A DNA stretch of 64,000 nt from a virus (IMGVR_UViG_2579778842_000003), one strand, 5' to 3'; shown: positions 3,524 to 45,345, counted from the first letter of the stretch. Translations and numbers: made by a program. The notes: generated from the letters alone by a model not told the origin.

Positions 3524-6500
3524 ATGAACAAGCTATCTATTGGGGTGTTTCGCTGTTCAAGTGTCAGCGAAATATTGAAATACATTAGGGCAATAACATC
3601 TCACCGAGCGCCGATTAAATACGGCGTGGAAAAGGTGGAAGGCAAAAGCTATGACCGACTGCGCCGGGAGGCGAATCAGAAGGCGATAGATTTGCTTAAT
3701 TCACTGGTGGACAGCGCGACACTGACAGATGAACAGCGCCAGATCCTGGCTGGGTACACCGGTGAAGGCGGCATTGGCGGGTCCGTCTCCGAATATTACA
3801 CACCAAAGCCGATCGCTGAAGGTGTCTGGGAGATCATGAAGCTCTACGGCGCGGACGTAGGTAACACTCTGGAACCATCGGCGGGCACCGGCGTTTTTAA
3901 TGAGACAAAACCGGTTGGTACGGTGATGACTGCGACTGAGATCAGCAGTGTTTCCGGTCGTATAAACCAGTTGTTACACCCGGAAGACAGCGTACAGATT
4001 TCCCCGTTCGAACAGCTGGCTATAAGCACACCTAACGATTCATTCGACCATGTTGTGGGTAACGTTCCGTTCGGCGGTCGTGATAACACACGCAACATCG
4101 ATAAGCCTTACGCAGAAGAAACGGACATGGGTTCTTACTTCATGCTCCGCATGCTGGACAAGATAAAGCCAGGCGGATTCATGTGCGTGATTGTGCCGCC
4201 GTCCATTGTTTCAGGTTCAAACATGAAGCGGTTACGCCTGCGCCTATCACGGAAAGCAGAATTTCTTGGTGCCCACCGCTTGCCTACCGGTACTTTTGAC
4301 GCAAACGGGACCAGTACGGTCGTAGATGTGGTGCTGATGCGCAAACATCCGGCAGAGATGGCTGAGAAAATCCCCCTGGTGGATGAAAGCACTCTTGAAT
4401 CAGCAAATGTGCTTTGGCCAACGTTTATTTCTGGCAAGTGGTTTGAAAAGGATGGCCGCCGGTTTGTTCATGGCACCCAAGAAAAGGGCTTCCGGGGGCG
4501 TATTGAGGTTCGTGCCGACGGTCAGATTGATAACCAGGCTCTTAAAGCGAAGCTGATTCATCGTTTCGAAAGCCGTATCGACTGGTCTTTGCTCGATATG
4601 GCTGAACCGTCACCGACCGCAGACGTTGTTGGTGAAGGGGAAATGCGCCTGATTAATGGCGTATGGCAAAAATATGCTGGTGGTCGCTGGATTGAAGCTG
4701 ATGCCGGGAAGGAACTTAAGATCGATGCTGCCAGTTATGGCGCGGATAGCTGGGAGGCTCTTCAGCGTAACCTGACTACAACAGAAGGCCGTCTCGGTAT
4801 GACATTTACCCAGATGGCAAATGTCCGCGATAAGTACACCACATCAATCAGCGACGATATGGTGCAGCTGGTGGACTGGATTAACAGCCAGCCTGAAAAA
4901 TACCGTGAACGCTTGTATCGCGGGGCGATGATTGGCCGGATGTTAATTGAATATCAGGATATGAAGGCCGCCGGGCATAGTGCTGAACAAATCGAACAGC
5001 AGCGCCTTTCTCTGGTATCCCGTTTGCAGGCAGAGATTGACCGTTTTGGTAACCCCGGTCGCGGTCCGATAGCGAAATTATCGGGGAGCGGTGCGCGCGC
5101 CTGGTTTGCTTTCCGTGGTGCAATTAAGCTGGATGGCACTATTTCTGACGAGCTGACAGGAAAACTGGTTACGCATGATTCCAGCGCCAGTTATGACTCC
5201 ACCAGCTATCAGGACACCCTGCGTTATCTCTACAGTGATCTCACTCGCGATCCAATCCAGCTCGATGATTTCCGCCTTGCGTTTACCGGCGAACTGCCAG
5301 CCAGTGATGATGAGTTGCTTAATTTATTGGCCAGCACCCCTGGCATTGCGGTTTCACCGTATGGCGGGATTGTTCCGTTCGCCCGCGCCACCAGCGGCGA
5401 CATTAACGAGATAGTGGCTCCAAAACAGGAATTCCTCGCCACGCTCCCCGACGGTCCAGTAAAGAACAACGTCCTTAATCAGCTGGCAGCGATCGAAGAG
5501 AAGCGCATCAAGACGCCAGCAGAGAATATCCGCTTTAAGCTCAATAGCCGTTGGTTCGACCGTTCCGTCATTCTGGAGTTTTTGCAGGAAAACGGCTATC
5601 CGGATCTGCGCTATGTGCAGTCAGTGCAGCTGGAAGGCGACGAAATGGTTTCTGACACCTATCACGGTGGTGATGGCCTGTTCGTCGGGCACCGATACGG
5701 TGTCGTCCAGCGCAAGGATAAAGAAACAGGCGAGATCCGCTACGAGTGGGACCGTAAATCAGGAGAAAACGCGACCGGGTTCCCGGCACAGCTGGAAAAG
5801 TATCTCAATGGTGCGCGTATCGGTGGCAAAGATAGCGCGACGGCGAACGGCTATCGTGAGCAGATGGCACTGCTTGAGGACCAGTTCAATAAGTGGATCA
5901 AGACGCACGATCGCTACGATGAGCTGGTTGCCAAATACAACGATGTGTTCAATAGCAATATCCCGTATGAACACTCTGGCGATCCGCTTGGGTTGAAGGG
6001 ATTAAGCGGTAAGCGCCAGCCATTTGATTACCAGAATAGCGAGGTGCGCCGACTGTCCGAAGATGGGCGCGGCATCCTGGGCTTCGGTACCGGGCTGGGT
6101 AAAACCACGACCGCGCTGGCGCTTGAGACGTTCAACTATGAGAACGGTCGCTCCACCCGTACTGCTTATGTAGTGCCTAAATCAGTGCTGGAAAACTGGT
6201 ATTACGAAGCAAAAGAATTCCTGAGTGAAGAGGCATTCAGTAACTACCTGTTCGTCGGTCTTGATGTGCTGATGGATGGCGATCAGATTCGCCAGGTGCC
6301 GGTGCTCGATGAGAACGGTAAACCTGTTCTTGGTACTGATGGCACTCCAGTTATGCGCGATGCTCTTAAGCTGGCAGATGAAGCCACTATCACAGCGCGG
6401 ATGAACGCGATCCCGCACTCAAACTACCGTGCAGTCGTGTTTACCAAAGAACAATACGCCCGCATTCCGCTACGTGATGACACCGTAGATGAGCATGCAC

Positions 6501-11056: not shown

Positions 11057-12364
11057 TTACACTATATTCTTAACTATAAGGTTGGCGTCCTTCAAGGTGC
11101 CTAATGTTTCAATGTGGTTTTTTATCATTAATCTATTTGAGGCAATTATTGCAGGCCATCGTGTTTCCCAAGCTCTGTAAGCATACCAAGAAACTCCCCA
11201 ATTCCTTTCTTTACTCATATGACCCATCGAGTATTCAACTGCGTCTAAATATGTTTTTTCATACTTAGTATTGCTAACCTCTATGATGCTTCCAAAATAT
11301 ATAAGCCATTTTGCCAACTGTTCATATTGCTCCCACGCTCCGTTATTCCTTGTTAACTTTCTCTTTTTTTCTATTATCCTTTCGAAAAGAGAAACGACTT
11401 TATCATCATTCCAATCTAAACCTTCCGATATAATTGATGATATAATTTGATAAAATGAATCCTCTAATTTAAGATATTCATTTTTATAAGTATAAGCCCC
11501 CGAAACAACTTTTCTGATATTTTCGCGCGCTCTTTCAATGATGTCTTTAATGAGAGACATCTTATAACTTAATCGACTAAAGAAACAATCTATTTCTGTA
11601 TTGTCAATTACCCTTATACCAAAGCAATAGAAGTAATAATCCTTCATATCTTGACTTACTTTGTTGCGAGATATCAAAAAGATATTAGAGCACAGGGCAT
11701 TATTTTTCGAAAATTTTTTATAGTCATTTATAATTGCTTTAAGATTTGTGTCGCTTAAAGAATACCCTAATATCGCAACTGTATTTTCATGCAGCATCGT
11801 ACTAAGTTTTCGTGAAAAATAAGTATCGGAATTTATAAATCTGAAGTAATCATCTGAAGTGACAATCATATTTTTTGGCGAATCAATAGAGCCATGAACA
11901 TGATATATTTTCACCTTGGATGGATACTTTGGAATTGGCAGGCCGGGCGTGATAGACTGTACACTTTCATCTCCAACCAAGCATTCAGCCAACTTGTCAT
12001 AATTTGTTGTAATGACACGGAATGAGTTTTTTTGGAAAAAATCTTTTATATTTGATATGTCTTCTCCAAGTTGAATTGGAGATATGATGTCAACAATTTC
12101 ATCATAAATCGACTTACCCTCAATATTGAGCTTCAAAGATAGTATTTGTGCGGCTTCTTCAAGACTCAGTGCTGGTGGTTTATCATCAGGGAATAACGTG
12201 TCTTCCAACTTTTTGGCATTGTGAACTTTGCTGCAAACTTTTTTTAATAGTTCCTTCCACGTTGGAGCTTCACCGTTCGAGACTGCCTTTGAAAAGCCAG
12301 TCCCGGTAAATAGACAAAGCCTGCTTGTAGCGGCAGCGTATGCTAACTCAACATATTCGCTCAT
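11057..12364 (-). CDS. SIR2-family (SIR2_2-like, putative NAD+ hydrolase) protein with uncharacterised C-terminal domain; candidate anti-phage defence gene
   Basis: 435-aa ORF, visibly AT-rich versus flanks. Motifs: LFTGTGFSKAV (GxGxS), VITTNYDKL (TNYD), IYHVHGS...IVTSDDYF. GGAG SD upstream of the ATG. Occupies the slot where P1 carries res/mod. Confidence 0.8.
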   Translation of the reverse strand: MSEYVELAYAAATSRLCLFTGTGFSKAVSNGEAPTWKELLKKVCSKVHNAKKLEDTLFPDDKPPALSLEEAAQILSLKLNIEGKSIYDEIVDIISPIQLGEDISNIKDFFQKNSFRVITTNYDKLAECLVGDESVQSITPGLPIPKYPSKVKIYHVHGSIDSPKNMIVTSDDYFRFINSDTYFSRKLSTMLHENTVAILGYSLSDTNLKAIINDYKKFSKNNALCSNIFLISRNKVSQDMKDYYFYCFGIRVIDNTEIDCFFSRLSYKMSLIKDIIERARENIRKVVSGAYTYKNEYLKLEDSFYQIISSIISEGLDWNDDKVVSLFERIIEKKRKLTRNNGAWEQYEQLAKWLIYFGSIIEVSNTKYEKTYLDAVEYSMGHMSKERNWGVSWYAYRAWETRWPAIIASNRLMIKNHIETLGTLKDANLIVKNIV

Positions 12365-12420: not shown

Positions 12421-13089
12421 TTATAGATAATTTCCTTTTCCAGTTAACTCCCCTTTAGGCACCCGTTTTTGTGCCAGTGTTTGGGTTCCGCGAATTATGT
12501 TAATCAGAGGGCTTAGTAACGATGATTCCTGGCGGGCATCAACTTCTCCTGCCATTGCCCTAATGTAGTCGGCGCTTGCAACGTTGTTATATTCCGTTGC
12601 GAAGCAGCATAACAACGTCAGAACGTGCTCTGTCGTTATTTCGCTCCAGTTGATGTTGAAAAATTCATCGCCTTTTTTGTCATGTTCGGAATCGAAGATG
12701 CTTTGGTGAAGGATGTATTTGCCGGATTCCTTGCGCGGTAACTTGATCGCTTTCTGGCGTTCCAATTCCTTGTAAATCTGCATCGCTTCAATCAGTACCG
12801 GTCTGCCGTTCATGAAGGGATCACGCAACCTTACACGCTGGCCAACTCGACCGGTAATAAAGCTGTTTTCCTCTTCCACCAGCACGATAAAACCCTTTTC
12901 CTCTTTTTCTCGCAATTCGCGCAGCAGCTGGAGTTCCATATCGCGGCGGCGTTCAGGGTAGCTGGTCCGCTCAGCCATTATCAGCTCATTGTTGATCCAT
13001 GCGGCAGTCATTGACGCCGGTTTGCCGACGCTCATCGAAACAACGCATATTTTCTTATCCATAGCGCCCCTACAAAAAAGAAAAGCCAC
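12421..13089 (-). CDS. hypothetical protein (P1 Mat-like by position)
   Basis: 222-aa ORF between ref and the SIR2-like gene; alternative start at MDKK (13062). Positional assignment only. Confidence 0.5.
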   Translation of the reverse strand: MAFLFCRGAMDKKICVVSMSVGKPASMTAAWINNELIMAERTSYPERRRDMELQLLRELREKEEKGFIVLVEEENSFITGRVGQRVRLRDPFMNGRPVLIEAMQIYKELERQKAIKLPRKESGKYILHQSIFDSEHDKKGDEFFNINWSEITTEHVLTLLCCFATEYNNVASADYIRAMAGEVDARQESSLLSPLINIIRGTQTLAQKRVPKGELTGKGNYL

Positions 13090-16604: not shown

Positions 16605-17456
16605 ATGATAAATTATGTCTACGGCGAACAACTGTACCAGGAGTTCGTCAGTTTCAGGGATCTCTTTCTAAAAAAAGCTGTTGCACGCGCCCAACACGTT
16701 GATGCCGCCAGCGACGGTCGTCCTGTTCGCCCGGTTGTCGTTCTGCCGTTCAAAGAAACGGACAGCATTCAAGCTGAAATTGATAAATGGACTTTAATGG
16801 CGCGGGAACTGGAACAGTACCCAGACCTCAATATCCCAAAGACTATTTTATATCCAGTGCCTAACATCCTTCGCGGTGTGCGTAAGGTTACAACTTATCA
16901 GACAGAAGCTGTGAACAGCGTCAACATGACCGCTGGCCGCATTATTCATCTGATTGATAAGGACATTCGCATCCAGAAAAGCGCGGGGATCAATGAGCAC
17001 AGTGCGAAATACATAGAGAACCTGGAAGCAACAAAAGAGCTAATGAAGCAGTACCCGGAGGATGAAAAATTCCGTATGCGTGTACACGGCTTTAGCGAAA
17101 CAATGCTGCGCGTCCATTACATTTCCAGTAGCCCTAACTACAATGATGGTAAATCAGTTAGTTACCATGTGCCGCTGTGTGGTGTGTTTATCTGCGATGA
17201 AACTCTCCGTGATGGAATCATCATCAACGGTGAATTCGAGAAAGCAAAATTTAGCCTTTATGACTCTATAGAACCGATCATCTGCGACCGCTGGCCGCAG
17301 GCAAAAATATATCGCCTGGCAGATATTGAAAATGTAAAAAAACAAATTGCCATCACTCGCGAAGAGAAAAAGGTCAAATCAGCCGCATCAGTTACGCGCA
17401 GCCGTAAAACTAAGAAGGGGCAGCCAGTAAACGACAACCCCGAAAGCGCGCAATAG
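16605..17456 (+). CDS. c1: C1 repressor of lytic functions
   Basis: 283-aa ORF (size of P1 C1), downstream of coi and the Op99-type operators; its cognate operators are scattered through the window. Confidence 0.9.
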   Translation: MINYVYGEQLYQEFVSFRDLFLKKAVARAQHVDAASDGRPVRPVVVLPFKETDSIQAEIDKWTLMARELEQYPDLNIPKTILYPVPNILRGVRKVTTYQTEAVNSVNMTAGRIIHLIDKDIRIQKSAGINEHSAKYIENLEATKELMKQYPEDEKFRMRVHGFSETMLRVHYISSSPNYNDGKSVSYHVPLCGVFICDETLRDGIIINGEFEKAKFSLYDSIEPIICDRWPQAKIYRLADIENVKKQIAITREEKKVKSAASVTRSRKTKKGQPVNDNPESAQ

Positions 17457-24982: not shown

Positions 24983-25345
24983 TCAGCTTTCGTTGGCATT
25001 TAACTTCGTCTTTGCTTTCTCCACCAGCAACTTCCAGATGCCTATTTCATTAGCAGCCGCCTTGATGGCGGCATAAAAAGCATCTTGCTGATCGTAACGC
25101 TGGATCTGTTTTTTCAGTTTTGCCTCCACCAATTTAATTTCATTACGTGCTTTCTGAATCCGCATCACCGCCCGGTTACGTCTGTTCTTGTATAGCGTGT
25201 TAATCTCTGACAATTGCTTTAATTTACCAGCCTGACTGCGGATTATCGCCTCCCTGGCTTCTGCCGTGCGTCTCATCTGATCTCTTAAGAGTTCACCGTT
25301 TTCGATAATTCTTTCAAGGTGTTTGATGTGATCTGCAACTCTCAT
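24983..25345 (-). CDS. hypothetical coiled-coil protein
   Basis: 120-aa ORF; start of a run of tightly packed, often overlapping - strand ORFs. Confidence 0.5.
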   Translation of the reverse strand: MRVADHIKHLERIIENGELLRDQMRRTAEAREAIIRSQAGKLKQLSEINTLYKNRRNRAVMRIQKARNEIKLVEAKLKKQIQRYDQQDAFYAAIKAAANEIGIWKLLVEKAKTKLNANES

Positions 25346-26016
25346 ACTTCACCCTCGCTTGTATCACCAGCGTCCACCAACGACAATAAAGCCCTGGCCA
25401 TCTTATGAACCAACAGTGCATCAATAATGCCAAGCGTATGCCCCGGCTTAATGTTTAATGCTGCCTCAAGATGACACCTTTCCAGACCGCTTTTCTCGGC
25501 TTGTTTATGATGATATGGCGTAATAACGTCGCCCAAAACACGGCTAATTCTTTCTCGTAATTGCTGGGTGCCAGCACACTTGATCGCTGTATCGTGGAGA
25601 CGGTTAACCAGTTCGCGATAAACATGCGGTTTAATGCGGATACGTTCACCGGTGACGCCCTTTCCTGGCCCTGGCACCGAACTATCCGGAATATCCGGAT
25701 AGTTGCCAGCCTCGTAAGCTACCCGCAGCCAGTGCATGAATGTTTCAGTAGACACACAACCACAGTCCACATCGATTTTTCCGCGTTGCTGTTCCAGCCA
25801 CTGCTCAAAATTCAATCTACACGTATTACTTTCATGTTGCTCTTTTTGTCTTAAGGCCAGCACCTGTTGGGCCAGTTCCAGAACGATACCGGGTGACGCT
25901 AACCTCTCAAATTCCAATAAATAGTTTGCGTCAGGATGACAAGTAGCCTCGCCTGCAAAAAATACCAATTGCTGTAAGTATGCTGTCGTTAGAGTAGTCA
26001 TTTCTTTTTGCGCCAT
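25342..26016 (-). CDS. hypothetical protein
   Basis: 224-aa ORF overlapping the downstream start by 4 nt (coupled). Confidence 0.5.
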   Translation of the reverse strand: MAQKEMTTLTTAYLQQLVFFAGEATCHPDANYLLEFERLASPGIVLELAQQVLALRQKEQHESNTCRLNFEQWLEQQRGKIDVDCGCVSTETFMHWLRVAYEAGNYPDIPDSSVPGPGKGVTGERIRIKPHVYRELVNRLHDTAIKCAGTQQLRERISRVLGDVITPYHHKQAEKSGLERCHLEAALNIKPGHTLGIIDALLVHKMARALLSLVDAGDTSEGEV

Positions 26017-27160: not shown

Positions 27161-27421
27161 TTACCTCACCTCCAGTCTCCATACCGCCTGACCAATCCGG
27201 CTGGCATGGGTATCTTTGGATACTGTTCCATCTTTAGCCAGCTCCATAAGAATTTTGCGCAAATCTGCCGAACGCCATTCTTCATCAGGAAATTCCTTCT
27301 CCATTGCCAACCGCAGATTCCAGGTTGCTATCGTGAATGGATATTCCCCGCCGAGAGCTTTCTCTTGCAGGGCAGCACGGGAACGTATCACCTGCAAAAC
27401 CTTCTCTTTTACATCCATCAT
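27161..27421 (-). CDS. hypothetical protein
   Basis: ORF 27161..27493 trimmed to Met-25 (MMDVKEKV), which abuts the upstream stop. Confidence 0.45.
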   Translation of the reverse strand: MMDVKEKVLQVIRSRAALQEKALGGEYPFTIATWNLRLAMEKEFPDEEWRSADLRKILMELAKDGTVSKDTHASRIGQAVWRLEVR

Positions 27422-28605
27422 TTTGCCTCCTGCGGCGGTTCTGGTAGCGGCATCCAGTGTGATGGTATCCACGACGCACCAGGTATTACCCACCCATCAT
27501 TAGCGTCAGGATGCCCCGGGATGTAAGTCGCCCATTTCATTCGCCAGTCACCTTTCCTGTCAAACTCCCTGGCAACAAGAACGGCTGTTTTGGTATCCGG
27601 CATTCGCTCACTACAGCTTATCCAACTATCCGGAATTACCGGAAAGTTGCGCATTGCGACCTTTAATGCCTCATAGAAGCACTCTTTCAAATTGTTGAAC
27701 TGACACCCATTTAGAGGACCGTGTTCAGTCAGCATGTTGTGTAATTTCCATGCCGCGTCGTTTACTGCGTTGGATGACATGGGAGGCAACTTGTAAGCCT
27801 GGCTTACAGGCTCGGAACCATGAAGAATGGCGGCGCGGCAGGCATCCTCTACGCCCTTAACTGCATCTGCGCAGTAGTTATAGCGATTGCATTCCACTAA
27901 CTTCTGCTTGAGATTTTCAATTGCTTGTGCGACATCAGCCTGTATTGGTGGAACGGCTGTCTGCTGCTCTCGAACGTCATTAGTCGCTATCGGTTCTGCT
28001 GCCAACTGACTGGCATATTTGTTAATGGTAACGATAAGCTCTTGCTCAGCCTCATCCAGACAATCACCGATACCTCGTCTGTCGCCGTCAAAATCATCGA
28101 AATCAGCACGAACTCTGGCAAACTTCAGGATTGCGGACAACACCTCACCAGGAATTACCGGAGAGTTGGTTGACGTTTCCGCAATTTCCCGAAAATTATT
28201 GGTTGACGCATTCGCGTTTTTCCGAAAGTTTCCGGCATGAAGCATAGCCGCGCGGCAGGCGTTCCAGCCTCTCACCTCTGCAATAGCGGCAACAGCATCG
28301 ACCGCGTACATGCTAAGAGGGTTAGGCATTGGTTTTTCTTCCGGTACTACTGGCGCTGGAGGGGCAGTGTAAAGCTGGTGCGTTCCATCAGGTAGCGAGT
28401 GACCCACATACTCACCGACCCCGTCAATACACATGCCCCCATCTTCAACAATGCATTCCGCTACAGGCTCTGCTTCCAGTGATGCCAGCGCAATCCGTGC
28501 CAGCTCTTCCGCTTCTTCTGCTGGCAGTACAACGTTGCTACCAGGTCCGTATGTTTCGCGCCACTCCTTGATTGTCAGCAGTCGCTCTTTGGTAATAGTG
28601 ATCAT
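27418..28605 (-). CDS. hypothetical protein with DUF551-like Trp-rich C-terminal domain
   Basis: 395 aa; C-terminus WISCSERMPDTKTAVLV...HWMPLPEPP resembles the DUF551 family as recalled. Confidence 0.5.
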   Translation of the reverse strand: MITITKERLLTIKEWRETYGPGSNVVLPAEEAEELARIALASLEAEPVAECIVEDGGMCIDGVGEYVGHSLPDGTHQLYTAPPAPVVPEEKPMPNPLSMYAVDAVAAIAEVRGWNACRAAMLHAGNFRKNANASTNNFREIAETSTNSPVIPGEVLSAILKFARVRADFDDFDGDRRGIGDCLDEAEQELIVTINKYASQLAAEPIATNDVREQQTAVPPIQADVAQAIENLKQKLVECNRYNYCADAVKGVEDACRAAILHGSEPVSQAYKLPPMSSNAVNDAAWKLHNMLTEHGPLNGCQFNNLKECFYEALKVAMRNFPVIPDSWISCSERMPDTKTAVLVAREFDRKGDWRMKWATYIPGHPDANDGWVIPGASWIPSHWMPLPEPPQEAK

Positions 28606-29117
28606 GCCGCGTTTCCTTCTTTCTTATTAACAATTACACCGTCATATATTTCATTAAGGTGCCCTCTCAACTCCATGCGCCTTAATGCAGATAACATGTA
28701 ATCGCATTCAACCTGCTTATTCCCAATAAAAGGTTTATCTTCAGGGTTACCCCAACAGCAATTCCCCTTGGGCCATCCATGTACTTTCCGTACTCTTCCG
28801 TTAACAACGTGAAGTAATCCCCAGCCAGGAGGTAAATCCTCAATTGAAATAATTCCCGGCTCACTAATAAAGAATCGCCAGTCGCCCATGCCAAGTGAGG
28901 GATTTTTACGGAAACGCTTTTTTCTATCTGCCAACAAATCAGCACGAGAACACTTCGCCTCTATCAGGCATGATGCTGAATTTCTGAATCCCATAGCATC
29001 TGGCTGTTCTCCGGTACTGGTTACAGCTATAAAGCGGTCATGAAAACAAACCTTGAACCCGTTGCGCTTAAGGAACTTGTACGCAATCTGACAGAGTTCG
29101 CGGTGTGTTAACGCCAT
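28602..29117 (-). CDS. putative PD-(D/E)xK-type nuclease
   Basis: Start at MALTHREL; TGEQPDAMGF ... CLIEAKCS gives a D/E ... PD ... E-x-K pattern. Confidence 0.45.
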   Translation of the reverse strand: MALTHRELCQIAYKFLKRNGFKVCFHDRFIAVTSTGEQPDAMGFRNSASCLIEAKCSRADLLADRKKRFRKNPSLGMGDWRFFISEPGIISIEDLPPGWGLLHVVNGRVRKVHGWPKGNCCWGNPEDKPFIGNKQVECDYMLSALRRMELRGHLNEIYDGVIVNKKEGNAA

Positions 29118-29118
29118 A

Positions 29119-29787
29119 TCACTCTCCTTTGATGCGAATGCCAGCGGCGCGTGGCACATTAACTTCCACGATGCGCACAGTTGGTTTGTACATCTCAATC
29201 GCAGTCAGCCAGTCAGCGCCAGTCATGCGCTTTTCTGCATCGCCATTAGTCCACTTAACCGGTACACCAATAGCCTTCATCGCGATTTCTATTTCCCCGG
29301 CAATGGCGCTTTTTCCGCAACCAGTAAAACCAGATACAACGACCAGAACTTCACCTTTGGCTGGTTTTATTTCCCGCGCTTCCAGTTCTGCTATGCGCTT
29401 ACTTCCATCCGAGATAACACCTTCGTAATACTCACGCTGCTCGTTGAGTTTTGATTTTGCTTCCTCAAGCTCAACTCTCAGCTTCCCTACCGTTAGCGCA
29501 ATATCCTCGTTCTCCTGGTCACGGCGTTTGATGTATTGCTGGTTTCTTTCCCGTTCATCCAGTAGTGCCAGCACGGTTTCTGGTCCGGCCAGAAATTTGA
29601 AGGCGTTGAGCGCATCAATATCCACACCGTAATCTTTAAGTTCCTGTTCACTTAACAAATCATCATCAGCTGGCAACATTAACAGGCGTTCCATTGCTGG
29701 AATTGCACGTTCCGCCGCCTCACGCAGTGCCTGATAGTCAATCTTGCTCACTGGTTGCCTCCTTGGCGGAGTTGCGCTGCGATGCAT
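29119..29787 (-). CDS. coiled-coil protein with C-terminal P-loop (Walker A GFTGCGKS)
   Basis: 222-aa ORF; Walker A motif in the C-terminal third. Confidence 0.5.
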   Translation of the reverse strand: MHRSATPPRRQPVSKIDYQALREAAERAIPAMERLLMLPADDDLLSEQELKDYGVDIDALNAFKFLAGPETVLALLDERERNQQYIKRRDQENEDIALTVGKLRVELEEAKSKLNEQREYYEGVISDGSKRIAELEAREIKPAKGEVLVVVSGFTGCGKSAIAGEIEIAMKAIGVPVKWTNGDAEKRMTGADWLTAIEMYKPTVRIVEVNVPRAAGIRIKGE

Positions 29788-29987
29788 GAAAAAAAAGACT
29801 CCCGAGTGTGACAGTTAAGAGCTGGTGCGAACGCCGCGTTAAGAACGGCGGCATCACAGCCGTCATCAATATAGAGCGCAATTTTTTTCTCCAGGCGCGC
29901 TTTGGCTTCCTGCAACTGCATACCCCGGCACGCACGCGGGATATAATCAGCAATTTGAGCGATAGCTTTTTCGTTCTGTTTAAACAT
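29748..29987 (-). CDS. hypothetical small protein
   Basis: 79-aa ORF overlapping neighbours; weak. Confidence 0.3.
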   Translation of the reverse strand: MFKQNEKAIAQIADYIPRACRGMQLQEAKARLEKKIALYIDDGCDAAVLNAAFAPALNCHTRESFFSCIAAQLRQGGNQ

Positions 29988-30183
29988 GCTTCACCTCGAT
30001 AGGCTTGATGGTGTCTAACAGCAGTCGGCGGCGCGTATTTTCTGCAAAATGGCGGCGCCCAGTTTCTTTGTGGTAAAACTCGTTTTTGCCGACGACCCAC
30101 ATCCGCTCTGTTTGGTGCAGTTTTTTTACCTTCGGGCCATCTTTGGTGATCACGGTACCGGTATGGGTTTTTACGATTGTCAT
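29980..30183 (-). CDS. hypothetical small basic protein
   Basis: 67-aa ORF coupled to the upstream PAPS-reductase-like gene (stop/start overlap). Confidence 0.4.
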   Translation of the reverse strand: MTIVKTHTGTVITKDGPKVKKLHQTERMWVVGKNEFYHKETGRRHFAENTRRRLLLDTIKPIEVKHV

Positions 30184-31058
30184 TCCACTACCTCTTCGAA
30201 TTTCAACTCCAATTGGTCACCCCAGATTTCACATGATTCGGAACACGAACCAGTATCAAACCGCTTGGCCAGCACCATCGCCTGATACAAATTTCTGTAG
30301 TCACTGTCGGCATACATTCTGGCAATCCCGTCAAGCGTCAGGTGGCCACGGTACATAACGTCTTTACCTGTTCTGCGCTGACCATCCCTGACGTGTTTGC
30401 CTGTAACCAGTTCATTAAAAACCCGCATCAGACCTGGTTCGTCTTTACATGCAAGCCCCAGCTTTTGCGTTGACTTTTTGATGCAAAAAACACAGTTCCC
30501 GAGGTGCTCCGGGATTTGCAAATCAAAAGGTTGTTTTCGCCACCACCGGATAACATCCGACTTATCAAAATCTGACAGTTCGGCAAGATACCGGACGCCC
30601 GGTTTCGGTTTCAGCCTACGGGGTTCGTCCGCACGAATACCGAGCCATGTGATGTAATTCCCTCGCCCAAAATGATCATCGCAATATTTCGTGAAAGGGG
30701 TGAGTTTTAGCCTGTCGGTACAGAACGCGCCGCCGATGTATGGCGTACCGTACTTTTTAACCATGTCCATAAACGGTTTAAGCACCGGCATTCGCGTCTG
30801 AATATCCTTTGGTTCCCATTCCGTATAACCATTTGGCTGCCCAAGTTCTGGATTTATATCGACCTGCAACACCGTTAGCGGTACGTTCCAGAACTTCACA
30901 ACCTCACGAATAAAGCGATACGTCAGAGGATGTTCACAGCCGGTATCCATAAAAATGAAATGGACGCTAGCGCCAGCTTTTCGCTGTGCTTCCATCAGAT
31001 GAACGAGATAAGCCGATGTTCGTCCACCTGAAAAGCTGACAACTTGATGCATACTCAC
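30180..31058 (-). CDS. PAPS reductase-like / PP-loop ATP pyrophosphatase family protein
   Basis: 292 aa; N-terminal SFSGGRTSAYL (SGGxDS-type PP-loop). Confidence 0.7.
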   Translation of the reverse strand: MSMHQVVSFSGGRTSAYLVHLMEAQRKAGASVHFIFMDTGCEHPLTYRFIREVVKFWNVPLTVLQVDINPELGQPNGYTEWEPKDIQTRMPVLKPFMDMVKKYGTPYIGGAFCTDRLKLTPFTKYCDDHFGRGNYITWLGIRADEPRRLKPKPGVRYLAELSDFDKSDVIRWWRKQPFDLQIPEHLGNCVFCIKKSTQKLGLACKDEPGLMRVFNELVTGKHVRDGQRRTGKDVMYRGHLTLDGIARMYADSDYRNLYQAMVLAKRFDTGSCSESCEIWGDQLELKFEEVVE

Positions 31059-31061
31059 GGT

Positions 31062-31790
31062 TTATTCCTGAATGCGCTTAAACTCGATTACCCACACCCA
31101 GGGATTAGCGTTCCAGCTTTCTTCACCATAGATGGATTCCCACAGGCGCTGGAACGCAACCTTGGCCATTGCGAAATCCCCCTTGGGAGTAAGGAATGTT
31201 CCCGGGTGATCAGGAAGCAAACTTCCAGCAGGCGGAACGCCCTCATCCCTTGCATCGCATTCGCTGATATCGTTCAACCGCTCAACGCGCACGTTGGTAA
31301 TTTCCAACAGGATGCGTGATGCCCATCGCGGCATGTGAATTGATGGACGCCACCCACCATCAAACTTTTCATTCACTGTGTGAGGTTTCCAGTCGGCATC
31401 ATCTGGTATCGACCATAAACCGTAATCACCAGGCTTTTGCTCACAACTGGCCCGATAAATCCTTGCTGCGTTCTTCTCATCGCCACGACAAAGGTTGTCG
31501 TTCCAGTCCACACTGCAACCATCTTCATTGCCTAATATCGCCCATGTTTCACGAACCCAAATTCGATCGCCGACGATACCAAAGGGGCAATTGAAAACAC
31601 TGCTTACACCATCAGCCCCGTACCACTGAAAACCTGCACCAATTTTTCTAACCATCACTGGTGCTTCTGGACCAACTTCCGCAGGCTGATTTTTCATTAT
31701 CCGCCGCGTCTGCGTTTTCCTTCCTTCGAGGATGGCCCGGACCATCTCATCGTTGAAAATCATGCCGCGCTCTTTCACTTCGCCTTTCAT
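31062..31790 (-). CDS. hypothetical protein, ASCH/PUA-like (tentative)
   Basis: 242 aa; N-terminal MIFNDEMVRAILEGRKTQTRR as in ASCH-like phage proteins as recalled; start may be Met-10. Confidence 0.45.
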   Translation of the reverse strand: MKGEVKERGMIFNDEMVRAILEGRKTQTRRIMKNQPAEVGPEAPVMVRKIGAGFQWYGADGVSSVFNCPFGIVGDRIWVRETWAILGNEDGCSVDWNDNLCRGDEKNAARIYRASCEQKPGDYGLWSIPDDADWKPHTVNEKFDGGWRPSIHMPRWASRILLEITNVRVERLNDISECDARDEGVPPAGSLLPDHPGTFLTPKGDFAMAKVAFQRLWESIYGEESWNANPWVWVIEFKRIQE

Positions 31791-31968
31791 GCATCCCCCT
31801 TACCCATGCGCGACGATGCCGCCAAAAGTGATAGAGAACAGCCAGAAATAGATCGCGGCCATAATGATTTTGAATGCCGTGTTCATATTTTCAGCTCCTG
31901 TGATTGATTGGATACATGCCGCGCCTTGCGGCATGTTTTTATTTTCACTTTCTCTGTTTTAAAAATCA

Positions 31969-31985
31969 AGATTTATTAGAGCAAT
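31969..31985 (-). promoter_or_regulatory. C1 operator upstream of the ASCH-like / PAPS-reductase-like operon
   Basis: - strand reads ATTGCTCTAATAAATCT (15/17 match to consensus). Confidence 0.6.
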
Positions 31986-32491
31986 TATTGTTGATGAAGA
32001 AGCGCATTTTCATACTCCCTGACCATTAACGTAAGCACGCCGTGCCTCCTGAAAACACGCGCCACTTCAATCTTATCTTCCAGCGCGAACGCGATTTTAC
32101 TTAGACCAATTTTCTTAAGGAGATCAATCTTTGCTGGGCCGTCATTTCTGTCATCGGTGGCAGGACGCATAGATAGCAAAGGCTCAGCCCCGTTTGTTAC
32201 GTACTTCCGCAGCCAGGCTCGTGTTTTATCCCTTGCGATCTCACAGCGCCCGGTTACAAACCAGACCGTGTAAACGCTAAATAACTGGCGCACCATATCA
32301 ATAACTGGAGTGATGGGAGTATCGGTGTCACAGGCGAGATTAAACTCGTTCCAGTCCTTTGTTAATGCACCTTTACTTGGTGGCGGAAGCAAATGCAGTC
32401 TGTCTTCAGTTGCCTCTGATATTGTTCCATCAATATCGACTATGACGATATACGGACGTTCCTGGTGTGCATGTTTATTGAAAATACTCAA
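31985..32491 (-). CDS. HAD-superfamily phosphatase-like protein
   Basis: 168 aa; DxDGT motif (IVIVDIDGTI) near the N-terminus. Confidence 0.6.
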   Translation of the reverse strand: MSIFNKHAHQERPYIVIVDIDGTISEATEDRLHLLPPPSKGALTKDWNEFNLACDTDTPITPVIDMVRQLFSVYTVWFVTGRCEIARDKTRAWLRKYVTNGAEPLLSMRPATDDRNDGPAKIDLLKKIGLSKIAFALEDKIEVARVFRRHGVLTLMVREYENALLHQQ

Positions 32492-32563
32492 ATGCCCTCC
32501 TCATTGGATGAAAAAAATGCTGGTGGGCGCACTCCACCAGCATTAAAAGTGACACTGTAACTA

Positions 32564-33826
32564 TCAGCGGACGTAAATAGTGCCGCCGTTCTCTTTTTCC
32601 CATGCATCGCTACGTGCATAGCAAACATCGAGAAGTCTTCTTGCCGCTGTTTCCTCTAAACCCAATTCGACAACCAACTGCTCATGACGGCGGGTAACCA
32701 CATCAAACAGGGTATGCAACCCTTTAGTTGCCAGATCATCAATGAATTCCGGTTCGAACGGCAGCTCTGCATCTGCCAACATAACCTCTTGCGCCCACTC
32801 AACTCGACGGACCAATTCCGGGCGGCGGCTTTCCATCTCTTTACAGATCAATTCATGGAAGAACTCTACCCAACCTTCCGGCTGGAACTCGCGGAAAATT
32901 GCCAACGGCTGGAAGTTTGGCATCAACCATTCGTTGATTCGGATATCAATGGCATAGCCCATGTCGCAGCAGAACTGATAAGCAAAGTCCAGCTTAGAAA
33001 CGATATAAGGACGCTCGTTATTGAACTCTTTAGGCGATGAGATCCCATAAGCCAGGAGGCGCGGGAAGAAGGAGATTTGCCCTAACGTCGGATGAAGTTT
33101 GCTTGCAGGGAAACGGCGCTCAGTAATGCCATACATTTCCTTCTTGAGCGTCGCAAATTTGGCATTCTCATTAACCAGCGCGGTAACCTCTGCTTTTTTA
33201 TTAGCAAATGCCACGCGCGCCTCGCTTGCATCTTTAATAGTTTTTTTGAGCTGTTGGTTAAGGTCGGCGACCTGCTTACGCAGTTCCTGTCGCTCGCTTT
33301 TAGCTTTGTTATAGCGTTTCTCAAGGTTAAAAGGATCAAGTTTCATGATCTCTTTATATTGAGATTTTAGCGTTGAAATCTGTGAGTTCCGCAGTTCAAC
33401 CATCGCGGTCATTTCATTGAGTTTTGTTTCCAGCTCAATGCTTATACGTTCGGCATTATCAGCACGCTGGTTGGCGTCATGCGTCGCATCGTCGATCGCG
33501 TCCTGTTGCTGGCGTTTCAAATGTTCAATTTGCAGCTGAAGCTCTTCAATTTCTTTACCCTTCAGACCGAGATCCAACTGCATATTTTCAGCTGCATCTA
33601 CCAGGGAGTTATGGCTATCAGCTTCTGCGTTATAAACATCAATAAGCTGTGCGTGAAGCATCTCCGCTGACTGAACCGCATTATCAAAAAAACGTGCTGT
33701 GAGGTCATCACAACTAACGCGGCGTTGCGCGGCCCGGATGTTCTGGATAATGGCCGGGATACCGGCATTCAGGACGTCAGGGATAGATACATTTTCGATT
33801 GATTGGTTTTGTGCTGAAGTGCTCAT
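32564..33826 (-). CDS. hypothetical coiled-coil protein
   Basis: 420 aa with a long central coiled-coil-like region. Confidence 0.5.
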   Translation of the reverse strand: MSTSAQNQSIENVSIPDVLNAGIPAIIQNIRAAQRRVSCDDLTARFFDNAVQSAEMLHAQLIDVYNAEADSHNSLVDAAENMQLDLGLKGKEIEELQLQIEHLKRQQQDAIDDATHDANQRADNAERISIELETKLNEMTAMVELRNSQISTLKSQYKEIMKLDPFNLEKRYNKAKSERQELRKQVADLNQQLKKTIKDASEARVAFANKKAEVTALVNENAKFATLKKEMYGITERRFPASKLHPTLGQISFFPRLLAYGISSPKEFNNERPYIVSKLDFAYQFCCDMGYAIDIRINEWLMPNFQPLAIFREFQPEGWVEFFHELICKEMESRRPELVRRVEWAQEVMLADAELPFEPEFIDDLATKGLHTLFDVVTRRHEQLVVELGLEETAARRLLDVCYARSDAWEKENGGTIYVR

Positions 33827-34127: not shown

Positions 34128-34829
34128 TTATTCTGATTCTTGCTCAAAAAACGCGCTAATGAGAGGAAGCCAATCCTCTGACACTTCACGCGGTCGCGGT
34201 TTGCCATGGAAGAAGATTATTCGGCAGTCTTTTGGTAATGCCCCATTCCCCCTGGAGTAGCGCGCACTTGCATATTTCGAACCAGGTTCCACAACATCGG
34301 CCTTGTAACTTACAAACCATCCCGGATACAGATCCTGAAATGCTGGTGTATCATCGCCCATAACCTTCCGTAAGAACCCCTGATCACCCCAGCATTCAGT
34401 AGTAACACAATGAGCAATCCAACCTTCCGGATCTTGCCAGAATGCACTCCAGATATGCGCTTTTACACTATTTGGTATCCACAGGGCACCGCTGCCACGA
34501 TATTGTGGATGGTAAAAATCCCTAAGCATGGTGAAGCTGGTTGGTGGATCCTCAAGGATTGGGCGTATATCACCGGCAATAACCGTGTCCAAATCCAGAT
34601 AAAACAGATCATCGGTTATATCCGGTCGGAACAACTCGATTTTCGCCCACCAGCCACGGCACTTTTGCCACTGGTTGATCAATGGGATAACTTTGACGCC
34701 AGGTACATGTAAACGCTTCAGGTCTGTCAGGCAAATAATTTCATAGCCTTTTGGCAGTTGATTAACCAGCCACTGCACATCGGAAGCGTTATAGTCGCCA
34801 CCAGAGCGAAGAACTAAAGCAATCTTCAT
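34128..34829 (-). CDS. hypothetical protein
   Basis: 233-aa ORF coupled to ppp (overlap ATGA). Confidence 0.5.
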
Positions 34830-35518
34830 GCTGCACCATCACCTTTCACTTTCATCAATGTCAGGTTTCCGCAAAATACGGCACCAGTGTCGATATAATG
34901 CTGATTCCAGAATGTCTTCGGGCTTTTCACCGGAGTGTGACCAAAGATAAAACGATCTGCGCCCGAAATTTCGCCACCAATATCATCCATCGAATCACTG
35001 ATACGCTCGCGCGCCCAGACAACGTTGAAAAGCGGCACCTCCTTACCGAATTGATATTCATTATCCGGATAGTCGGCATGGGCTATAACGATAGTTTCTT
35101 GCCCGGTGTTCAACTCAATGATATAGGGCAGTCGTCTTACCAACTCCACCAGCGCCCTGGCTAATATTTCCTGATCAGTGTCCAGCATGAAGAACCATTG
35201 TCCGCCATTCATTAGCCAGTTATTCACGTTGCCATCAGGACTTAACGCATCGAGCATCAACCGCTCATGGTTCCCCATTACTGCCCTGAACCAGGGCATC
35301 TGCAATAGTTCCAGACATTCGACATTTTCAGTACCGCGATCGATAAGGTCGCCGACCGATATCAGTAAATCCTGCGCCGGGTCAAAATCCACACGATGGA
35401 GTTCGGACATCAGTCTGGTGTAGCAACCATGCAGATCACCAACAACCCAGATATTCCTGTATTTGGTACCGTCGATACGGTGATAAATTGTTGGTGCCAT
35501 CATGTATTCTTCAGCCAT
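34826..35518 (-). CDS. ppp: Ser/Thr protein phosphatase, calcineurin-like (P1 Ppp)
   Basis: 230 aa with GDLHG, GDLIDRG and GNHE metallophosphatase motifs. Confidence 0.85.
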
Positions 35519-45269: not shown

Positions 45270-45345
45270 TGGTGGCCCCTACCGGACTTGAACCGGTGAC
45301 CGTGCGATTATGAGTCGCCAGCTCTAACCACTGAGCTAAAGGGCC
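45270..45345 (-). tRNA. trnI: tRNA-Ile (anticodon CAU, lysidine-type; could formally be Met)
   Basis: 76 nt, GGCCCTTTAGCTCAGTGGTTAGAGC...CTCATAA...GGTTCAAGTCCGGTAGGGGCCACCA; close to E. coli ileX as recalled; cloverleaf folds by hand. Confidence 0.8.

Follow-up and report, generated by a model that had tools for sequence, protein, structure and literature searches.

A previously described C1 operator heads a probable mosaic accessory unit with a lambda NinC homologue in a wild P1-like phage-plasmid

The viral DNA stretch IMGVR_UViG_2579778842_000003 (64,000 nt, one strand; the whole of it is referred to here as the window) contains a near-consensus operator for the C1 repressor, flanked on the - strand by genes for a HAD-type phosphatase (Pap), an ASCH/PUA-like protein (PmgT), and a PP-loop enzyme resembling 3′-phosphoadenosine 5′-phosphosulfate (PAPS) reductases (NinC). 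The question raised by this locus is whether the three proteins form one repressor-controlled pathway that modifies phage DNA or RNA, as was proposed in a sequence-only reading of the window. Every element described in that reading, with its coordinates and motifs, was found as stated on the - strand. The region is probably the known C1-repressed OpmgT/Op88-pmgT early unit of a wild P1-like IncY phage-plasmid, a mosaic accessory operon without a joint pathway, in which Pap belongs to the preceding unit and counter-defence is the likeliest role of NinC. Positions 27400-32500 are 100% identical to the Escherichia coli W25K plasmid unnamed3 (NZ_CP091040.1, IncY, 97.7 kb), a P1-like phage-plasmid for which the genes of this stretch are already annotated in RefSeq, and parts of the stretch match phage P1 at 97-98% identity. 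The operator has already been described, and dozens of sequenced plasmids share the arrangement.

C1 operators were defined as 17-bp asymmetric sites fitting ATTGCTCTAATAAATTT. The site at 31969-31985 was found to be base-for-base the same as P1 OpmgT (formerly Op88), annotated at the head of pmgT in the P1 record (NC_005856), which cites the earlier deposited Op88 sequences M25414 and X98146. Consensus-like sites with three or fewer mismatches occur 12 times in the window, compared to an expected 0.44, and none of 100 shuffled sequences reached this number. The cognate repressor is encoded in the window as well, and its sole difference from P1 C1.100 falls in a product annotated as thermosensitive by the P1 record. 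The identity to P1 OpmgT, the enrichment of sites, and the presence of the c1 gene thus indicate that the operator noticed at the head of the - strand gene string is genuine and was described previously. Since the sequence is identical to that of P1 Op88, binding of C1 at this site is expected.

The organization of the DNA downstream of the operator is consistent with a single transcription unit. The stretch that holds the predicted promoters P1pmgT and P2pmgT (31941-31984) is identical in the window and in P1, and a consensus scan for promoters returned one weak promoter-like site, at 32013-31984. From ninC downstream, starts and stops overlap, first as ATGA and then by 8, 40, and 4 nt, and terminators inside the string are not above chance (10, compared to 8.9 expected). 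When C1 is absent, on infection or induction, transcription would start near 31934, just downstream of the operator and right at a stable hairpin, and, as the P1 annotation and the gene packing suggest, the transcript would run through a 28-residue membrane peptide, PmgT, NinC, and about a dozen packed small genes, to pmgV. Expression at once on entry, before the repressor builds up, would fit genes of counter-defence. The coordinates of the features are collected in Table 1.

Table 1. Features of the operator-headed unit and of the loci that bear on it. Positions are those of the window; aa, amino acids; ORF, open reading frame; 813R1, vB_EcoM-813R1.
Feature	Position	Strand	Remarks
OpmgT (former Op88), C1 operator	31969-31985	-	reads ATTGCTCTAATAAATCT; one mismatch to consensus; last base overlaps the pap stop codon
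c1, repressor, trans-acting regulator of the operator	16605-17456	+	283 aa; 282/283 identical to P1 C1.100 (99%)
Predicted sigma-70 promoters P1pmgT/P2pmgT	31941-31984	-	transferred from NC_005856; -35 boxes overlap the operator
GC-rich hairpin where the pmgT transcript is predicted to begin	31914-31936		9-bp stem, conserved in P1 and 813R1
Small hydrophobic ORF, first cistron after the operator	31800-31886	-	28 aa, MNTAFKIIMAAIYFWLFSITFGGIVAHG; AGGAG Shine-Dalgarno sequence
pmgT, putatively ASCH-like	31062-31790	-	242 aa; large insertion at ~84-148; phrog_874, E 2e-94
ninC, PP-loop ATP-pyrophosphatase-type, PAPS reductase-like	30180-31058	-	292 aa; GTG start; contains VVSFSGGRTSAYL
pap, HAD-type polynucleotide 3′-phosphatase domain	31985-32491	-	168 aa; VIVDIDGT; TTG start
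Strong intrinsic-terminator-like hairpin	32516-32544	-	11-bp stem, then T7; between pmgS stop and pap start
ORF of phrog_1226	29980-30183	-	67 aa; start overlaps ninC stop (ATGA, 30180-30183); travels with ninC in Stx-type phages
ORF of phrog_1344	29748-29987	-	79 aa; PHROG match
Ead/Ea22-like protein	29119-29787	-	222 aa; Pfam PF13935, E 7e-38
ORF of phrog_9263/631	28602-29198	-	PHROG match
Protein with C-terminal DUF551	27418-28605	-	395 aa; Pfam PF04448, E 8.6e-20
ORF whose C-terminal half is P1 'PmgU'	25342-26016	-	224 aa; residues 114-224 92% identical to PmgU
pmgV, last - strand gene before + strand genes	24983-25345	-	96% identical to P1 PmgV
Segment absent from canonical P1	25717-31095		5,379 bp; DNA alignment with NC_005856

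The genes headed by the operator occur in different company outside the P1-like plasmids. In lambdoid phages of the Shiga toxin (Stx) type, NinC is followed by the 67-residue, 79-residue, Ead/Ea22, hypothetical, and DUF551 proteins in the early-left operon, downstream of RecT-exonuclease-SSB, and no ASCH gene stands by this block. In the nin regions of lambdoid phages, a NinC homologue of 54% identity is flanked by NinB and NinE, and no ASCH gene was found at the lambdoid, Xenorhabdus, or Moritella NinC loci. PmgT homologues of Klebsiella prophages (62-73% identity) lie between RecT/YqaJ, sometimes with Dam, and DUF1382/TraR/xis/int. A conserved PmgT-NinC pair elsewhere was ruled out, as eight such Klebsiella prophage loci have no PAPS reductase nearby. 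Among the plasmids of PLSDB, ninC is found in 75 records, compared with 404 for pmgT. CRISPR interference (CRISPRi) showed that P1 pap, pmgT, pmgU, and pmgV, as well as lambda ninC, are dispensable for plating (PMC10695390). The genes of the unit are best read as independently acting, dispensable accessory genes, which would have been gathered by recombination and are of the lambdoid early-left/nin kind.

NinC of the window aligns over its full length with lambda NinC/Orf290 (NP_040635), with 80% identity over 285 residues; RefSeq starts the gene at the ATG at 31052, which gives a protein of 290 residues. It is assigned to phrog_424, in the PHROG category 'moron, auxiliary metabolic gene'. In 45 homologues the SFSGGRTS sequence is invariant, and the DTGxEH motif and six cysteines (C113, C126, C189xxC192, and C272xxxC276) are conserved. 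The AlphaFold2 model, with a predicted local distance difference test (pLDDT) value of 87.6, has its closest folds among the adenosine 5′-phosphosulfate (APS)/PAPS reductases (E ~2e-5), followed by LarE, TtuA, TilS, and GMP synthetase, and QueC structures are distant neighbours only (E > 0.006). These matches represent the general PP-loop fold, with template modeling scores (TM-scores) of only 0.36-0.5, and a Foldseek search of BFVD gave no further named relatives. The family to which the PP-loop enzyme had been assigned, PAPS-reductase-like, is borne out by this fold, by the invariant PP-loop, and by Pfam PF01507 (PAPS_reduct), which matches residues 6-72 only, at 37.7 bits compared to a cut-off of 22.5. 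The ratio of nonsynonymous to synonymous substitution rates (dN/dS), calculated against the copy in Shigella phage Ss-VASD, was 0.063. These comparisons indicate that ninC is a functional gene under strong purifying selection and an orthologue of lambda NinC. A separate observation concerns the 66 nucleotide differences between the two ninC copies, 57 of which fall within the first ~420 nt; this distribution suggests a recombination breakpoint inside the gene.

An experimental precedent is available for a homologue of NinC. The N-terminal PAPS module of p0018 from Vibrio phage 44E38.1 was found to be 55% identical to NinC residues 3-282 (BLASTP, 1e-110), and the PP-loop and all six conserved cysteines are common to both. 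When p0018 and its neighbour p0019 had been moved into a sensitive phage, this phage infected a Vibrio crassostreae host that carries Dnd (Piel et al., bioRxiv 10.1101/2021.05.05.442762). The result is cited in a 2026 paper as a case of a phage PAPS reductase evading Dnd, and PAPS reductase genes of that sort were found in anti-defence operons (PMC13551039). Several members of the NinC family, p0018 among them, are fused to a Dam methyltransferase. In the PADLOC defence library, the best match of NinC was SspD (PDLC02782, E 1.8e-13), followed by BrxP (~1e-4) and DndC (5e-4).

In view of the p0018 experiment and the report on anti-defence operons, a counter-restriction function is favoured for NinC, and the protein is tentatively assigned, with rather less than even confidence, as an enzyme that depends on ATP, probably binds a metal or an Fe-S cluster, and acts against phosphorothioate-dependent (Dnd/Ssp-type) restriction. 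NinC may modify phage DNA with the help of host sulfur-transfer proteins; alternatively, it may interfere with the host restriction system. A more specific proposal, which we regard as doubtful, is that stand-alone NinC (lambda Orf290 and the copies in Stx phages and P1-like elements) might serve as a single-protein counter-defence against Dnd/Ssp early in infection, using host IscS-type sulfur donors and either sulfurating the phage DNA or taking over the modification complex of the host. If this were true, a function would be gained for a lambda gene that has lacked an explanation ever since the genome sequence became available, and the P1 Op88 unit would be an early anti-defence island, in which PmgT could be a reader or eraser of modified bases. 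Of the proposed connection between the PP-loop enzyme and DNA modification, the part that holds is the nucleic-acid/anti-restriction precedent in p0018; the part that does not is the suggested Dnd-like or 7-deazaguanine pathway, for which no partners are annotated on the identical plasmid.

Several observations weigh against the counter-defence reading of NinC, and against a self-contained C1-controlled unit. Genes for the partners DndA/IscS, DndD/SspC, and DndE/SspB are absent from the RefSeq annotation of the identical plasmid and from the surroundings of the phage NinC homologues, SspA is likewise missing from the plasmid, and any DNA sulfuration would therefore need host proteins. The SspD match joins NinC residues 5-148 to profile positions 2-121 of 277, that is, the N-terminal PP-loop half alone. 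Compared with p0018 of the anti-Dnd cassette, NinC has neither the Dam domain nor the DUF6475 partner, and, because the cassette consists of two genes with a PAPS-Dam fusion, the anti-Dnd effect is that of the cassette as a whole. Lambda ninC, like P1 pap and pmgT, has no known phenotype in laboratory hosts (PMC10695390). With respect to the unit, no terminator separates pap from the operator, so that read-through from upstream could also feed the genes downstream of it, and, for this copy, the point of initiation, the joint transcription of the genes, and their control by C1 are predictions.

The relation of Pap to the unit follows from its position. The sequence-only reading had correctly recognized a HAD-type phosphatase with a DIDGT motif just upstream, and both its family and its location stand; its inclusion in a C1-controlled cluster does not, because a gene upstream of the operator is outside the string that the operator heads, and pap is part of the preceding unit. 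The terminator-like hairpin that follows pmgS is separated from the TTG start of pap by 25 nt, and expression of pap would thus need read-through. Pap is 97% identical to P1 Pap and is assigned to phrog_415 (polynucleotide kinase). It passes the Pfam HAD_PNKP profile (PF25109) with 46.2 bits, compared to a cut-off of 27.6 (E 6.5e-12), and the DIDGT sequence at residues 19-23 represents the DxDxT nucleophile motif. Alignment was also obtained with the phosphatase domain of the RNA-repair enzyme Pnkp1 (PDB 4xrp, E 2e-4). An N-terminal P-loop kinase domain was not found in Pap, and the profiles and the 4xrp match cover the phosphatase part alone. A natural guess is that Pap is a 3′-end-healing phosphatase.

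The ASCH/PUA-like assignment of PmgT held up in part. Resemblance to ASCH proteins is seen weakly across the family and in the fold, and the window protein itself has no match. The Pfam ASCH profile (PF04266) did not match PmgT of the window even at E <= 1, nor did any other Pfam family, whereas 28 of 41 PmgT homologues matched the ASCH profile weakly (best E 6e-4). A Foldseek search of the PDB with the PmgT model returned five ASCH proteins at the top (E 0.17-0.8); as the model is poor (pLDDT 53), this search is only suggestive. No match among PDB sequences was obtained in a profile search with PmgT. The invariant GRKTQTRR sequence of PmgT is similar to GRKTITIR of E. coli YqfB, and the C-terminal WVWVIEFK strand to FYVIEFK; an hhalign comparison of the N-terminal PmgT motif with YqfB gave an E-value of 0.0045 at a probability of 8%. 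An ASCH-like nature of PmgT is plausible, though not proven. As to its role, that of a reader or eraser of modified bases is a natural guess, and a literature search for pmgT found no functional study.

One alternative places all three proteins in RNA metabolism: Pap would heal 3′-phosphate ends, PmgT would bind or deacylate modified RNA bases, and NinC would thiolate or otherwise modify tRNA, together countering defences that target tRNA. The resemblance of Pap to the phosphatase domain of Pnkp1 would fit this idea, as would the activity of the ASCH enzyme YqfB on N4-acetylcytidine (PMC12707154) and the first prediction of the ASCH fold as RNA-binding, and the structural neighbours of NinC include two enzymes of tRNA, TilS and TtuA. 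The TilS and TtuA matches are, however, weaker than those to the APS/PAPS reductases, Pap has no kinase or ligase partner, the sole experimental link of the NinC family is to a DNA-based defence, and pap, pmgT, and ninC do not co-occur outside the P1-like plasmids. This alternative is unlikely.

The proposal with which the locus was first read, that Pap, PmgT, and NinC constitute one C1-controlled pathway modifying phage DNA or RNA in lytic growth (by Dnd-like sulfur or 7-deazaguanine-like chemistry), fares poorly as well. The three genes lie within 2.3 kb on one strand, all are in families that act on nucleotides or nucleic acids, and the Dam fusions of NinC relatives would suit a role in modification. 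Against a common pathway stand the location of Pap, upstream of the operator and after a terminator-like hairpin, the PmgT-NinC adjacency that is not conserved in lambdoid contexts, and the loss of ninC alone in 813R1. Genes for DpdA/TGT, FolE, and QueC-E (7-deazaguanine) or for a cysteine desulfurase were not found in the RefSeq annotation of the identical plasmid, and DndA, DndD, and DndE are likewise not annotated on it. The Vibrio partner protein p0019 was also considered as a PmgT relative and was ruled out; it is a DUF6475 protein rather than an ASCH protein (hhalign probability 0.1%). The three genes are consequently not regarded as one cluster, and a shared modification pathway is judged quite improbable.

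The names of phrog_424 and PF01507, and the APS/PAPS reductases as the closest solved folds, would suggest that NinC is an auxiliary metabolic PAPS/APS reductase of the CysH type that boosts host sulfate assimilation. This is contradicted by the restriction of the PF01507 match to the first 72 residues, by the low TM-scores, and by the NCBIfam CysH equivalog NF002537, for which NinC scored 21.9 bits and did not reach the cut-off of 154. The PP-loop of NinC, SGGRTS, is canonical, and the PAPS reductase 6vpu reads SSFGIQ at the aligned position. In the CysH family, the C-terminal catalytic cysteine is located in an ECG(L/I)H motif, which is absent from the NinC translation; the tail of NinC reads GSCSESCEIWG. 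The DndC equivalog TIGR03183 was not reached either (17.8 bits, compared to a cut-off of 290.4). As judged by these profiles and motifs, NinC is not a PAPS reductase of sulfate assimilation, nor is it orthologous to DndC, and a metabolic function is very improbable. A literature search for NinC together with PAPS reductase found no functional study. A role in virion morphogenesis, implied by the P1 GenBank annotation (pmg, putative morphogenetic), is already largely refuted and barely credible, given the normal plating on CRISPRi of P1 pap, pmgT, pmgU, and pmgV (PMC10695390), the enzymatic domain content, and the normal virions made by canonical P1 with a truncated pmgT and without the rest.

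The independent, mosaic character of the unit is also reflected in its deletion history. Canonical P1 is colinear with the window as far as 31096 (pmgT codon ~232) and resumes at 25716, inside the 224-residue ORF, so that the missing segment begins with the final 11 codons of pmgT, includes ninC, and takes in the 5′ half of that ORF at its other end. The tail of the P1 PmgT protein (309 residues) is translated out of frame from the 3′ half of the 224-residue ORF, and this tail is without W233, V234, and F237, all invariant in 41 homologues. Two ORFs are cut short at the P1 junction, which makes a deletion in the P1 lineage the simpler assumption, and insertion of a lambdoid block into the P1 backbone was disfavoured. 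The pmgT tail and 'pmgU' of P1 thus appear to be a deletion scar. In the record of vB_EcoM-813R1, another P1-like phage, pmgT is kept and an internal ninC deletion of ~796 bp (record 4285-4367, window ~30200-30996) leaves a remnant of 23 codons; the alignments indicate that 813R1 and canonical P1 lost ninC in separate deletions. In the same record, product names seem to be shifted by one gene, with 'PmgS' on pap and '3′-phosphatase' on pmgT. A protein of 294 residues, encoded by 20 contigs, matches approximately the first 230 residues of NinC (79% of the NinC length) with 100% identity and continues with a DUF551 C-terminus; it is apparently the product of another deletion, which fused ninC to the downstream DUF551 gene. 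The P1 names pmgT (309 residues) and pmgU would accordingly label a scar and not native genes, which concerns the transfer of P1 annotation to wild phage-plasmids.

The leader of the unit shows further features. An 86-nt leader region folds at -20.2 kcal/mol (z = -3.4). Rfam searches identified no RNA family in the region, and repeats in 29900-32600 were limited to short, chance-level matches. When read on the + strand, the hairpin at 31914-31936 resembles an intrinsic terminator, with TTTTATTTT next to it. This terminator-like hairpin (window 31914-31945) is oriented against the operon, and it is antisense to the stretch with which the small hydrophobic ORF begins, its leader and ribosome-binding site. 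On the + strand, a weak -10 sequence (CATAAT, 31860-31865) could yield an antisense RNA of ~70 nt, an organization that recalls type I toxin-antitoxin pairs; a convincing -35 box for it was not found. The small ORF of 28 residues is identical in P1 and 813R1 and is unannotated in the P1 record, and a 'membrane protein' is annotated in Salmonella phage SJ46 where that phage matches the 31800-31886 region. Pfam and PHROG searches with the longer, 44-residue reading of the ORF (31800-31934) gave no match.

Elsewhere in the window, a 435-residue protein with a SIR2_2 domain is encoded at 11057-12364 (-), with matches to Pfam (E 1e-23) and to the PADLOC profiles PDC-S25 (1e-26), ThsA (2e-17), and LmuA (5e-16). 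An ORF of 222 residues is located upstream of this gene, at 12421-13089 (-). The SIR2_2 locus lies downstream of ref, where the res/mod genes are located on the P1 map, and it is a candidate for anti-phage defence cargo. Three tRNA genes, at 45273-45345, 47153-47225, and 47231-47303 (-), are the Rfam matches within the window (RF00005, 65-75 bits); P1-type phages carry a small tRNA set. A metallophosphoesterase gene at 34826-35518 (-) is syntenic with P1 Ppp, which is 64% identical to the lambda serine/threonine phosphatase (NinI), according to the P1 record. The plasmid therefore has homologues of ninC and ninI within 5 kb, each in a region that bears a C1 operator.

The finding as such changes little, the operator having been described decades ago. 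The sequence link to the Vibrio anti-Dnd cassette nevertheless offers a cheap way to test what lambda NinC and the orthologues in P1-like elements and Stx phages do.

The proteins share features with known systems and differ from them in others. Pap shares the HAD_PNKP match and the DxDxT motif with the T4-type polynucleotide kinase-phosphatase, from which it differs as a stand-alone phosphatase domain, without the kinase domain and without a ligase partner. PmgT and E. coli YqfB, an N4-acetylcytidine amidohydrolase of the ASCH type, have the GxKTxTxR motif and the C-terminal VIEFK strand in common, whereas the 242 residues of PmgT, its insertion of ~65 residues, and its extra conserved motifs (PSIHMPRWASR) set it apart from ASCH proteins, and it scores below every ASCH threshold. 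NinC resembles DndC, SspD, and BrxP in its N-terminal PP-loop half and is close in size to the 277-position SspD profile, whereas its C-terminal half is unaligned with these proteins. The PP-loop and cysteine motifs of NinC are those of lambda NinC, the gene of which is located between ninB and ninD under pR/N control, whereas plasmid ninC lies in a C1-controlled P1-like operon. The OpmgT unit of P1 (NC_005856) has an identical operator and a nearly identical promoter stretch, small ORF, first 231 pmgT codons, pap, and pmgV, and it lacks 5,379 bp of the window, including ninC.

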